This document shows, piece after piece, positions 41,766 through 44,136 of a stretch of DNA of 64,000 nucleotides; position 1 is the first letter of the stretch, and each line of letters begins with the position of its first letter. Both the position numbers and the translations under genes were made by a program. The notes beneath the pieces were generated by a model, which saw only the letters and a list, made by a program, of their open reading frames with translations, ran no database searches and was not told where the DNA came from. Source of the DNA: Candidatus Babelota bacterium (GTDB lineage Bacteria > Babelota > Babeliae > Babelales > Vermiphilaceae); assembly GCA_049325595.1 (NCBI GenBank), contig JBMOLF010000015.1, positions 74,479 to 138,478 of the forward strand, in the 5' to 3' direction.

Positions 41766-41936
41766 TTACTTATAGTTTAATACAACATAATCAAATCGTC
41801 AAAATTGATCCAAATAGTAAGTTTTTATTCGATAAAAGCTAAAAAAAAGTAAGTTGTCATCTCTGGGGCTGTTGTTATACTAGGTGCCGGACGCTTAAAT
41901 GAAAGATTAAACATGAATATATGAATTTTTATTGGC

Positions 41937-42569
41937 TTGTTATTAGTGAGTTTTCCTATCATATCAAGTGAAAAAAGTCTTACCAAAATTTTAAGTAAAG
42001 ATTTTAATCTCGGTAAAAAACGCGTTGAAAATCTGTTTAATGAAGCACGAATGCTTCCAACCAAAGAAAAAAGAGCATGTTTTTTAAAAGATTTCTGTAT
42101 TCGGCACATTCATAAAAATATAGATCAAGCAGCACGTAATTTGCAAAATCGAGTAGTTGATATACAAAAAATTAAACAGGCAGCTAATGAAATAAAAAAA
42201 ATGACAACTAGTGCCTCTGGTATAGTAAATGAAGATGGATTAATAAATAAGAAAAAATTACTTTTGTATGCTCCTGATAATCTAGAATGTCAATTATTAG
42301 ATCAAATATCTGATATTTGTTGTCCTGTTTGTTATGAATATTATGCTATCGACGTAATTGGCGGAACGGCACAAAAAATTTTTTTGGGTTGTCATCCTAC
42401 TCATACCATATGCTCCAAAGATGTGAGTTCGCTCTTTACTAAAGAGCAATGCCCTCATTGTAGACAGCGCATTAGTATAAATTCAATACGACAACAAATA
42501 AACCTGCATGATGCCTATCAAAAAAGAGATCAATTTCTAAAACTAAAGGAACAGCATGAAAAAAATTAG
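41937..42569 (+). CDS. RING-type zinc-finger protein (putative E3 ubiquitin ligase mimic), paralog 1
   Basis: C-terminal CPVC-x19-C-x3-H-x2-C-x2-D-x9-CPHC followed by RQRI. Only a TTG start is in frame; an ATG at 41921 is out of frame by 1 nt across a T5 run. Confidence 0.65.
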   Translation: MLLVSFPIISSEKSLTKILSKDFNLGKKRVENLFNEARMLPTKEKRACFLKDFCIRHIHKNIDQAARNLQNRVVDIQKIKQAANEIKKMTTSASGIVNEDGLINKKKLLLYAPDNLECQLLDQISDICCPVCYEYYAIDVIGGTAQKIFLGCHPTHTICSKDVSSLFTKEQCPHCRQRISINSIRQQINLHDAYQKRDQFLKLKEQHEKN

Positions 42570-43743
42570 TTTGTCGATTGTATTTTTACTATCGATTGTA
42601 CAATCAATGCACGCATCATGGTACGATTTCTTTAAAGCATTACATGATATGCTTGAAAAAATTGAACAAGAAGCAAAGCCGGTTCATCAAACAACACCAC
42701 TACAAAAACGGGATTTAGAATATTATTTGCAACAATTTAGATCAGATCTTTCAGGACTTGAAGCGGCTGATATAGAGCGTATTGTTTCACTTGCACGAAC
42801 TTCGCTGCTTTCACTTGGTACCACATCTATAACAAAAGACTATCTAGATCAAGCATTACGATCGGCCTTGGTTGAGCAATCATATCAATCAGCTTATACG
42901 AAAGCAAAACAATTAGGAGCATCAGAAAATTTTGCACAACGCTTTGCGCAATCTATCCAGGGAAATGTTATTGCTCGTTTAGAAAAAGCACAAAACATTA
43001 ATGGTCTTGCGTATGTGCAATTTTTTGGTAAGGAATTAGAATATACTCTCAAAAAAGAATTAAAAGCAAATCAGCCTTCTCAGCCAGCTTATTCACCGTC
43101 ATATCAAGCTCCAACAAGCCAAACTTCATATCATTTTCCTATAGCAGAGCACATGAATATGCTCCATAAAAAATTACAAGAGCTTAATCTTTCTGAGGCT
43201 GAAGTTAATACGCTTTTGCATCGAGTTAAGAATGAACTATCTGCTCATTTTGTTACTGACAAAAATGCAATCTCACTTACTAAAAAGGCATTAAAAGAAT
43301 GGTTTGACCAAGTAATACAACAAAATTGTAATGCATTACAATTTGAGGTAGTCGATCTTTATAAGCTTAAAGAAGGCTGCGAGCAAGTGCGTCGGTTGCT
43401 TAATAGTAAAGAAGGTTTAGATTTTGATTCAGCAGTATTTGCAGTTGCCAAATTGCGTAAATTTACACCCAAAGAAGTAACTGAAACTATCTTGGACAAC
43501 ATTGATAAAATACGCTGCTCAATTTGTATGGAATATTTTATTGAAGAAATGAAAACAAAAGGAACAGTACATCGCGTTGTGTTATCATGCCCATCAAAAC
43601 ATGCAATTTGCGCGCATGATGCTGCATGGAGTTTGCAATCGGGAGCATGTCCTGAATGTAAGGCACCAATTAATAAGAATAACTTACAGCAACAAATTAA
43701 TGCGCTGCACAATGCGCCATCAGCTCCACCAATGGGCGCATAA
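42556..43743 (+). CDS. secreted RING-type zinc-finger protein (putative E3 ubiquitin ligase mimic), paralog 2
   Basis: 395 aa with a signal peptide. C-terminal CSIC-x20-C-x3-H-x2-C-x2-D-x9-CPEC, with the Trp (AAWSL) typical of RING E2-binding surfaces. Confidence 0.7.
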   Translation: MKKISLSIVFLLSIVQSMHASWYDFFKALHDMLEKIEQEAKPVHQTTPLQKRDLEYYLQQFRSDLSGLEAADIERIVSLARTSLLSLGTTSITKDYLDQALRSALVEQSYQSAYTKAKQLGASENFAQRFAQSIQGNVIARLEKAQNINGLAYVQFFGKELEYTLKKELKANQPSQPAYSPSYQAPTSQTSYHFPIAEHMNMLHKKLQELNLSEAEVNTLLHRVKNELSAHFVTDKNAISLTKKALKEWFDQVIQQNCNALQFEVVDLYKLKEGCEQVRRLLNSKEGLDFDSAVFAVAKLRKFTPKEVTETILDNIDKIRCSICMEYFIEEMKTKGTVHRVVLSCPSKHAICAHDAAWSLQSGACPECKAPINKNNLQQQINALHNAPSAPPMGA

Positions 43744-43758
43744 AATTAATGAAAAATT

Positions 43759-43783
43759 AGGCCGGTTTGCCGGCCTTTTTTTA
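43759..43783 (+). terminator. rho-independent terminator
   Basis: aggccgg-tttg-ccggcct followed by a T8 run. Confidence 0.75.
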
Positions 43784-43845
43784 TAATTAAATATTGTGAT
43801 GTGGTAAATAAGCTTATTACCCTAAAATAAAAAGGGGATAAAAAG

Positions 43846-44136
43846 ATGAAGCACTATGCAATTATAGTAGGGTTAATTGTTATCACACCATTCTTATCTG
43901 CATCAGAAAACAAAGAAAATACCTTAGCAAAACCACACAAAAAAAATATAAAGCTCCCATTTAATGTAGGCTTTACCAATGATTTGTATGAAAAGAAAAA
44001 AAAGTCTAAGCCGGAAGATGATTATGCAGGGCGTATGACACCTCGTCCTCTTACTGCGCGAGAAGAATTTCAAGAGTCGCTTAAACGACTCTTGTGTTGT
44101 GTGATTTGCAAAAAAGATTACGATGAACTGGAATAA
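43846..44136 (+). CDS. small secreted protein ending in a single C-x2-C knuckle (possible truncated RING paralog)
   Basis: 96 aa with a signal peptide. The C-terminus LLCCVICKKDYDELE-stop resembles ICCPVCYEYY and CSICMEYF of the neighbouring RING proteins. The stop abuts the ychF 3' end. Confidence 0.35.
   Translation: MKHYAIIVGLIVITPFLSASENKENTLAKPHKKNIKLPFNVGFTNDLYEKKKKSKPEDDYAGRMTPRPLTAREEFQESLKRLLCCVICKKDYDELE

Follow-up and report, generated by a model that had tools for sequence, protein, structure and literature searches.

The locus described here raises the question whether two adjacent bacterial genes encode RING fingers proper and, if they do, whether the encoded proteins would act on the ubiquitin system of a eukaryotic host or in the service of the bacterium itself. 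Both genes, termed P1 and P2, are located on the forward strand of a stretch of 64,000 nucleotides (hereafter the window) taken from contig JBMOLF010000015.1 of a Candidatus Babelota bacterium, and an initial annotation of this stretch had read them as RING-type zinc-finger paralogues followed by a possible third, truncated copy. From the analysis reported here P1 and P2 are suggested to be secreted proteins with a 'RING-D' finger, i.e., a RING-HC finger in which Asp takes the place of the sixth zinc ligand, that mimic host E3 ubiquitin ligases. This reading is held to be the probable one, though by no means a secure one, and it comprises zinc coordination, binding of ubiquitin-conjugating enzymes (E2), ligase activity, dimerisation and delivery to the host, each of them predicted from sequence or modelled structure.

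The predicted RING domains and their aspartate position

Both proteins end in the pattern C-x2-C-x19/20-C-x3-H-x2-C-x2-D-x9-C-P-x-C, and across all six frames of the window these two matches were the only ones obtained. The pattern was absent from 200 DNA shuffles, from 300 residue shuffles within the open reading frames (ORFs) and from 20,000 composition-preserving shuffles per protein, and because of this the motif observation is regarded as real; the two adjacent ORFs with a C-x2-D variant of the RING motif were hence found where the initial annotation had placed them. P1 and P2 follow the RING-HC cross-brace spacing (C-x2-C-x9-39-C-x1-3-H-x2-3-C/H-x2-C-x4-48-C-x2-C), with Asp as ligand 6 and canonical residues at the other seven ligand positions.

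For P2 one 99%-identical copy and four orthologues at about 58-75% identity were identified, and for P1 one 100%-identical copy, called by NCBI as a protein of 207 aa. The named relatives belong to Candidatus Dependentiae and include the complete genome of strain Noda2021, the nearest cultured relative, which was isolated through infection of Vermamoeba vermiformis and which was the sole related locus returned when the GTDB species representatives were searched with the full-length P2 alignment. Gene order at the locus is shared with Noda2021 (L001), the 99%-identical strain (L010) and a 73%-identity relative represented by two metagenomic contigs (L008 and L009), and it runs from the glycoside-hydrolase (GH) genes GH3, GH1 and GH1 through the short RING genes (one or two), the long RING gene and the small ORF to the convergent ychF. 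Between the syntenic genomes the synonymous substitution rate (dS) is saturated; the non-synonymous rate (dN) alone is informative and no dN/dS ratio is given. dN was found to amount to 0.17-0.40 for P2, 0.50 for P1, 0.47-0.79 for the small ORF and 0.06-0.09 for ychF. As the ORFs are intact despite saturated dS, P1, P2 and the small ORF are read as real genes, fast-evolving yet constrained, with the RING being the best-conserved part of the P1 and P2 proteins.

Homology was assessed with a domain alignment in which four paralogue or orthologue lineages are represented by seven sequences (P1, P2, P2 orthologues and two short paralogues of Noda2021); its eight ligand columns, Asp included, and the Pro following ligand 7 are invariant. 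When used as a profile against PDB, this alignment retrieved the RNF4 RING (E 4e-6, and 2.6e-10 for a tandem-RING construct), followed by TRIM32, RING2, TRIM21, RNF8 and BRCA1. In the RNF4 alignment the conserved Asp pairs with the sixth Cys of RNF4, all eight ligand positions being in register across the whole domain, and hhalign assigned a probability of 95% to the match between the domain profile and the RNF4 RING. No match was obtained when the RING-domain alignment was used for a word-index search for homologues. A profile built from the Asp-type sequences only was subsequently compared with 1.84 billion representative proteins and yielded 34 matches at E <= 1e-3, about 25 of which form a coherent family, members with a canonical Cys being recovered at whole-library E-values of 1e-9 to 1e-4. 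Five multi-repeat high scorers (P0007, P0009, P0022, P0024 and P0031) were set aside as TRAF-type, zinc-ribbon or unrelated repeat proteins.

The resulting alignment of 29 domain sequences comprises 26 bacterial members (six of the window clade and 20 others) and three eukaryote-type RINGs including RNF4. Pfam zf-C3HC4 is matched by 20 of the 29, three of these being the eukaryote-type ones, and Pfam gathering scores are exceeded by P0013 and P0023 (zf-C3HC4) as well as by P0026 (zf-RING_2, 47.8 bits). Prok-RING_4 (PF14447, gathering score 27 bits) matches neither P1 nor P2, and 16 of the 29 sequences touch it: P0023 passes with 30.7 bits, and P0016 (25.0), P0026 (24.9) and P0036 (22.5) stay below the cut-off. 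Eukaryote-type RING models perform better than Prok-RING_4, or in place of it, for P0026 and P0013, whereas for P0023, P0016 and P0036 Prok-RING_4 is the best or sole match.

An AlphaFold2 model computed from the 29-sequence alignment reached a mean predicted local distance difference test score (pLDDT) of 76, with about 90 in the core, and shows a helix (residues 8-18), the RING core and two further helices (55-64 and 76-87), with one helix ahead of the finger, the usual central one and one behind it; the N-terminal helix has a pLDDT of 50-55, and the placement of the helices in the monomer is uncertain. With this model, the top 50 Foldseek matches in PDB were almost all RING or U-box E3 domains (Rad18, RNF4, TRIM32, RAG1, RING1B, TRIM21, RNF125, TRAF6; probability up to 0.99), and in BFVD giant-virus RING proteins and herpesvirus RING proteins (ICP0) were retrieved with a probability of up to 1.0. 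The predicted fold is therewith that of the RING/U-box E3 domains and not a non-RING one, an outcome that model and fold search support with moderate confidence, and taken together with the profile and hhalign matches to RNF4 and with canonical-Cys relatives above the Pfam thresholds it bears out the RING-HC-type finger initially proposed, so that the domain is considered very probably to be a RING. An assignment to the U-box class is not supported, the seven Cys/His ligands being strictly conserved and one position only being other than Cys or His.

As to the Asp, its column is invariant in the seven sequences of four lineages, which makes it, in line with the initial annotation, a conserved feature rather than noise. 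In the 29-row alignment ligand 6 is Asp in all six rows of the window clade, whereas Cys is found in the remaining rows, 20 of them bacterial and three eukaryote-type; P0017 (...CNKHHVCSNC...CPECRAPF) is an example of the closest relatives, which carry Cys. As Asp is constant in the window clade and Cys in the 20 remaining members, the Asp form is interpreted as the derived and fixed state of one subclade within a true RING-HC family, the ancestral state being Cys. Rbx1 and TRAF6 are known to employ Asp at ligand 8 as a zinc ligand, and zinc ligation by the Asp of P1 and P2 appears plausible.

Members of the wider family follow a common plan consisting of a signal peptide (where the N-terminus is complete), a long helical region with the common motif ...GN[VI]xARL....ING.....QFFG..., a low-complexity Pro/Gln linker and a C-terminal helix-RING-helix. 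The family was seen on bacterial or metagenomic contigs only, and on those of Dependentiae wherever the phylum was identifiable: the two members with fetched contigs are surrounded by ordinary bacterial genes (ABC transporters, UvrC, TIM, SecG), and the metagenomic ones reside in a bacterial gene context of 37-40% GC. On one contig (L006, 8001-10290) the member P0018 (562 aa) has its N-terminal module duplicated, and 26 nt further on a secreted protein of 191 aa follows that consists of the N module (...YAESEERNVRTAMKL...YLGTE...) without a RING. This shows the family to be modular, with partners that lack the RING.

Export, targeting and a putative E3 ligase mimic

P2 begins with a Sec-type signal peptide, read from the sequence without a predictor, whose cleavage region is marked by the motif H-A-[ST]-W, invariant among the orthologues (conserved pattern HA[ST]W[YH][ED]FF). 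For the helical region that follows, no significant match was found in Pfam, NCBIfam or PDB; the full-length P2 profile returned nothing from PDB for the N-terminal modules, with the herpesvirus triplex protein Tri1 (E 0.075-0.28) as the lone non-RING match, and single-sequence scans of the three ORFs against Pfam and NCBIfam gave no significant family, a weak NNH3 match (E 1.5e-4) staying under the cut-off. P1 residues 6-193 align to P2 residues 194-387 with 29% identity (E 2e-22). The non-RING regions of both proteins are thereby mutually related, and P1 is, as judged from this alignment, essentially the C-terminal half of P2. An element [EKR]-[VI]-[VI]-[DNH]-x-x-K-L is kept family-wide just upstream of the RING (EVVDLYKL at P2 residues 263-271, about 43342-43368; RVVDIQKI at P1 residues 71-79). 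It superficially resembles a SUMO-interaction motif, which is of note next to an RNF4-like RING, and it is probably part of the helical module.

The C-terminal tail of P2 contains the tetrapeptide PSAP (peptide LHNAPSAPPMGA), which is invariant among the P2 orthologues, all of them ending ...[AR]PSAPxMGx, and which is the only P[ST]AP among the long ORFs of the window. Within the family 13 of 27 proteins carry PSAP (P0002-5, P0013, P0016, P0019, P0020, P0023, P0026 and P0035-37), as compared with 0.07 expected from composition, and it occupies either the C-terminal end or the central Pro/Gln linker; in its place, further members have a PANWRP tail in common. The tail of P2 was modelled with low pLDDT and is probably disordered. 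P(S/T)AP is the ligand of the UEV domain of TSG101, and LRSAM1/TAL and MGRN1 bind and ubiquitinate TSG101 through it (PMC7073217). By analogy, the motif suggests docking of P2 on the UEV domain of the host ESCRT-I (TSG101/Vps23).

The residues by which RING ligases contact the E2 are largely retained: among the 26 bacterial members the position following ligand 1 by two is Ile, Val or Leu in 23, the Pro after ligand 7 is present in 25, and Arg or Lys, the so-called linchpin, follows ligand 8 in 23. In P2 these positions are occupied by Ile, Pro and Lys, without variation among its orthologues, and in P1 by Val, Pro and Arg. A heterodimer of the short and the long protein is suggested by the layout of helix-RING-helix, by fold matches to TRIM, Rad18, BRCA1 and RING1B and by the arrangement of gene overlap, promoter-like site and terminator-like hairpin.

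The proposed mechanism assumes that the P1-P2 two-gene unit encodes paralogous Sec-exported proteins, each ending in a helix-flanked cross-brace RING-HC finger, whose site I zinc would be held by Cys1, Cys2, Cys5 and the Asp carboxylate (C3HC-D-C2, the 'RING-D' pattern). Outside the bacterium, on contact with amoebal cytosol, the RING would recruit the host E2~ubiquitin conjugate through the Ile or Val of loop 1, the Pro that follows ligand 7 and the basic linchpin (Arg/Lys) that follows ligand 8; with these contact residues retained, P1 and P2 would mimic E3 ubiquitin ligases. A dimeric RING, possibly the P1-P2 heterodimer, is suggested by the flanking helices, and target choice may be exerted by the helical N-terminal modules, in P2 additionally by the invariant C-terminal PSAP. 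A host-directed role is plausible because the organism belongs to Dependentiae with an amoeba-infecting relative and because effectors of this phylum are usually marked by a signal peptide together with a eukaryote-like domain. In another member of Dependentiae signal peptides were reported for 44% of the proteins, including 78% of the ankyrin-repeat proteins, which are thought to act on the host, and C. destructans was described as an intracellular pathogen of a protist. The initial view that zinc RINGs are rare in bacteria and therefore imply manipulation of host ubiquitin stands in its second part, the host-directed role being plausible, but the rarity was overstated, Prok-RING_4 and RING-type Legionella effectors being documented.

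Several observations weigh against this proposal. In single-sequence Pfam scans P1 and P2 match RING models at E 0.2-0.8 only (10-12 bits against a cut-off of 27), and the short paralogues of Noda2021 match nothing. Since these single-sequence matches are non-significant, the RING call rests on the profiles. A five-sequence AlphaFold model was poor (pLDDT 55), and the Foldseek E-values are weak, being 4.5e-3 or worse in both PDB and BFVD. The P1 orthologue of L008 reads CLFCY and has neither the Pro nor the basic linchpin, and the Noda2021 short paralogues carry Phe or Asp at the linchpin position. The case for the heterodimer consists of gene adjacency and flanking helices, the PSAP-UEV interaction is an analogy, and P1 has a nonsense codon in this strain and may be poorly exported or heading for loss. 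Moreover, the Sec signal peptide moves a protein across the inner membrane only, and a Cys-rich zinc domain would transit or fold in an oxidising compartment.

In view of these points it is conceivable, albeit unlikely, that the RING fold is kept without ligase activity, i.e., as a zinc-stabilised dimerisation or binding module or as a decoy or inhibitor of E2, whereby the exchange of Cys to Asp together with the linchpin loss would reflect a drift away from catalysis. The loss of linchpin or Pro in the L008 orthologue and in the short paralogues is in line with such a drift, the flanking helices are akin to dimerisation bundles, and many eukaryotic RINGs, such as BARD1 and BMI1, are inactive partners; the partial loss of the E2 surface in the short paralogues resembles the pattern of these inactive partners in heterodimeric RINGs. 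Yet the contact residues are complete in P1 and P2 of the window and invariant among the P2 orthologues, a basic linchpin is found in nearly all bacterial members, and an inactive partner would still imply an active ligase dimer.

It is improbable that the proteins serve the bacterium instead, be it by zinc binding in the periplasm or at the surface or in a prokaryotic ubiquitin-like conjugation linked to Prok-RING, with host ubiquitin uninvolved. The Sec signal peptides do point to the envelope, more than half of the aligned domains touch Prok-RING_4, P0023 even above its cut-off, and a dedicated effector translocation system was not identified in this analysis. However, genes for E1 or E2 enzymes, ubiquitin-like or JAB proteins were not found in the neighbourhood, and across the aligned domains the best E-values go to eukaryote-type RING models (zf-RING_2 1.7e-12 as compared to 3.8e-8 for Prok-RING_4). 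RNF4 is the closest solved relative, PSAP is a eukaryotic linear motif, and with dN values of 0.17-0.50 the RING genes evolve much faster than the adjacent ychF. In addition, the only cultured relative identified was isolated by infecting amoeba, and C. destructans lives inside a protist.

Finally, a generic treble-clef or zinc-ribbon, or a Cys/His pattern that arose by chance and is unrelated to RING, is very improbable: the weak single-sequence Pfam scores do include zf-Di19, ZnF_RZ and Zn_ribbon_ACC, and the five repeat proteins named above score high in the large search, but the shuffles gave no match, profile, hhalign, Pfam on the relatives and fold searches converge on RING, and the Pfam RING and RNF4 alignments span the whole domain with the eight ligands in register.

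Organisation of the locus and its neighbouring genes

The features of the locus are compiled in Table 1. Three ORFs of the forward strand, namely P1, P2 and the small ORF of 96 codons, are situated between the divergent GH cluster and the convergent ychF.

Table 1. Features at and around the P1-P2 locus, numbered by window position
Feature	Position	Strand	Remarks
GH3 gene	36905-38566	-	
Two tandem GH1 beta-glucosidase-like genes	38683-41765	-	4-nt mutual overlap
Promoter-like site TTGTCA-16-TATACT	41854..41881	+	extended -10 TG; 10/12 consensus match only; 32 nt upstream of ATG 41913
P1	41913..42569	+	ancestral 218-codon gene: signal peptide, helical module, RING-D
P1, longest open frame	41937-42569	+	210 aa from TTG
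P1 helix-RING-helix domain	42252..42500	+	Arg linchpin straight after last Cys
P1 RING-D core CPVC-x19-C-x3-H-x2-C-x2-D-x9-CPHC	42321-42461	+	CPVC...CHPTHTICSKD...CPHC; Asp codon 42420-42422
P2	42556..43743	+	395 aa
P2 Sec-type signal peptide	42556..42615	+	MKKISLSIVFLLSIVQSMHA; cleavage before SW
P2 helical region	42619..43449	+	N module (QGNVIARLEKAQNINGLAYVQFFGKELE), Pro/Gln/Ser-rich linker, C module in common with P1
P2 helix-RING-helix domain	43450..43704	+	Lys in linchpin position
P2 RING-D core CSIC-x20-C-x3-H-x2-C-x2-D-x9-CPEC	43516-43659	+	CSIC...CPSKHAICAHD...CPEC; Asp codon 43618-43620
P2 PSAP tetrapeptide	43717..43728	+	C-terminal tail, NAPSAPPMGA before the stop; candidate P(S/T)AP docking motif
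Intrinsic-terminator-like hairpin AGGCCGG-TTTG-CCGGCCT with T run	43759..43785	+	hairpin 43759-43776; 16 nt past P2 stop
Small conserved secreted protein (96-aa ORF)	43846..44136	+	signal peptide, MTPRP motif, CC dipeptide; ends ...LLCCVICKKDYDELE before the stop
ychF	44137-45249		convergent to the RING genes

P1 and P2 overlap by 14 nt in the window and by 4 nt in L008, and the overlap suggests a single P1-P2 transcription unit with the possibility of translational coupling, which the strong terminator-like hairpin behind P2 would close. The evidence for the promoter-like site is weak, as promoter-like matches are fewer in the region than in shuffled sequence.

The start of P1 had earlier been set to position 41921; the ATG at this position, however, is in another frame, which stops after 16 codons, and the in-frame ATG is that at 41913. 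Codon 4 of the gene is an in-frame TGA (41922-41924), which breaks the signal peptide MNI[R]IFIGLLLVSFPIISS, whereas the 99%-identical strain L010 has CGA (Arg) at this position, its N-terminus reading MNIRIFIGLLLVSFPIISS... The TGA is attributed to a recent nonsense polymorphism or a base error, and translation of P1 in the window would therefore have to begin further downstream, leaving out the charged N-region, unless the gene became a pseudogene very recently or the base itself is wrong. Recoding of TGA was considered as well and rejected, given that TGA ends four of the 39 long ORFs here and that the sister strain has CGA. Since the P1 orthologues also bear signal peptides, the earlier statement that P2 is the paralogue with a clear signal peptide holds for P2, but P1 does not lack one by ancestry.

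In every relative examined, the 96-aa ORF accompanies the RING genes in conserved order. Its orthologues (75, 85 and 96 aa; L001 7274-7501 and L008 7378-7635) occupy the identical position and share the end point abutting ychF, with the ends FCCGKPYYDEIE and FCCLCIKNEYDDLD. The ORF is interpreted from this conservation as a conserved small secreted protein and not as a decayed RING. That it is the truncated, decaying third RING paralogue with a homologous CCVIC knuckle which had initially been proposed is scarcely credible, for although it adjoins both RING genes, carries a signal peptide and has CCVIC at its end, its score with the family RING hidden Markov model lies in the noise (4.8 bits, E 1.3), the CC dipeptide alone and not the CxxC is kept (CCVIC, CCLC, CCG), the orthologues share position and end point despite saturated synonymous sites, and there is no downstream room because the convergent ychF stop adjoins at 44137. 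The ORF ends Y-[DY]-[DE]-[LI]-[ED] (YDEL-E, YDDL-D or YDEI-E), which fits a YxxPhi sorting signal plus an acidic residue, and its CC dipeptide is a possible acylation site. Within the 3'-terminal part of the ORF, at 44071-44094, there is a perfect inverted repeat of 9-10 bp (CAAGAGTCG...CGACTCTTG); the stop codon of the convergent ychF is about 45 nt away, and the repeat may serve as terminator for ychF transcription, though its T run is poor.

Synteny of the GH3 and the two GH1 genes with the RING locus is kept in the relatives with fetched flanks (in L010 the GH3 gene is outside the fetched part), and the GH1 protein encoded at 40257-41765 has an N-terminal hydrophobic segment with a lipobox-like end (...LIPAC). 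This gene set is unexpected for so reduced a parasite; its substrate could be host-derived beta-glucans, e.g., of the amoebal cyst wall. Downstream of ychF, at 45875-47020, a gene for an ATPase with AAA_14 and DUF4143 domains is found, which may be a strain-specific insertion because it is missing at the corresponding position of L001 and L008. In L008 a large WD40 beta-propeller protein, i.e., another protein with a eukaryote-like domain, is encoded at 11745-13218, a few kb downstream of the RING locus.

Relation to known systems and significance

Among the solved structures the best sequence match is the RING of RNF4, a eukaryotic SUMO-targeted ubiquitin ligase (3NG2, 4AP4, 2XEU), with which the long first loop (CPICMDGYSEIVQNGRLIVS as compared to CSICMEYFIEEMKTKGTVHRVVLS), the ending CP.C[RK]..I and, in P2, the Met directly after ligand 2 are shared, the fold match having a root mean square deviation (rmsd) of 3.4-3.7 A over 56-58 columns. 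Differences concern ligand 6 and the adjacent spacing (Cys and C-x-H in RNF4, Asp and C-x3-H in the window proteins), the mode of dimerisation, which in RNF4 involves a C-terminal tail (HPIYI) absent here and in the window proteins would involve RING-flanking helices, and the N-terminus, as RNF4 has SUMO-interaction motifs and is without a signal peptide. With an identity of about 30% over about 55 residues the similarity is one of the superfamily level and not orthology. For the helix-flanked dimeric RINGs TRIM32, TRIM21, Rad18, BRCA1/BARD1 and RING1B/BMI1 the likeness lies in the predicted helix-RING-helix, with top fold matches covering 82-97 columns; the rmsd of the full-length superposition, however, is high (6-11 A).

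The term RING-D was coined for a plant type (Arabidopsis, Brassica), i.e., RING-HC fingers with Asp for Cys at ligand 5 or 6 (PMC5240574). Asp at ligand 6 is common to both, but the plant consensus is C-x2-C-x12-15-C-x1-H-x2-C/D-x2-C/D-x10-C-x2-C, whereas the window proteins have x19-20, x3 and x9 at the respective places and thus do not belong to this class; as their nearest relatives have Cys and the spacings differ, the change to Asp is regarded as independent of that in plants. Small RING-superfamily domains with presumed or shown engagement of host E2 were also described for effectors of intracellular or host-associated bacteria, namely Legionella LubX, GobX and RavN and NleG of enterohaemorrhagic Escherichia coli (EHEC), all of them U-boxes, and the predicted RING-type Lpg2370 and Lpg2577/MavM of Legionella (PMC5819833). 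Different from the window family, these depend on type III or type IV secretion, have no Sec signal peptides and are mostly zinc-free U-boxes; the PSAP tail and the N-terminal modules occur in the window family only, and a sequence relationship between the two groups was not found in any search carried out here. Like P2, LRSAM1/TAL and MGRN1 have both a RING and a P(S/T)AP motif, but beyond the RING superfamily there is no homology, and their other domains, e.g., the leucine-rich repeats and SAM domain of LRSAM1, have no counterpart here.

The RING-D type in plants, RING-superfamily effectors of amoeba-associated bacteria and prokaryotic RING families in Pfam were accordingly known before. What is new is the family itself, which is undescribed, Sec-exported, modular, PSAP-bearing and apparently Dependentiae-specific; a literature search revealed no report on it or on RING or ubiquitin effectors of Dependentiae, and a search on bacterial PSAP-TSG101 mimicry found nothing relevant. 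Considering the analogy to LRSAM1 and MGRN1, a further-reaching idea can be put forward, which is rather doubtful at present: P2, possibly as heterodimer with P1, might represent the first P(S/T)AP 'late domain' mimic of bacterial origin, that is, a secreted RING-D ligase which, by way of its PSAP, docks on the UEV domain of amoebal TSG101/Vps23, ubiquitinates TSG101/Vps23 or its cargo and thereby rewires endosomal and vacuolar trafficking around the parasite, and the PSAP-bearing RING family might then constitute a Dependentiae-wide toolkit for the hijacking of ESCRT.

Dependentiae parasitise protists and are widespread, hardly any experimental work exists on them, and apart from ankyrin repeats their effector repertoire is largely unannotated. 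The locus described here defines a family of putative zinc RING proteins with signal peptides whose database label is just 'hypothetical', and it offers handles for its study, i.e., the orthologue Noda2021_05410 in the culturable strain Noda2021 with Vermamoeba as host, a natural Cys-to-Asp switch next to canonical paralogues and a recurrent PSAP pointing to ESCRT-I. If the activity is confirmed, this would raise the question by which route Sec-dependent effectors reach the host cytosol, and Sec-exported true zinc RINGs would join the bacterial mimics of E3 ligases.

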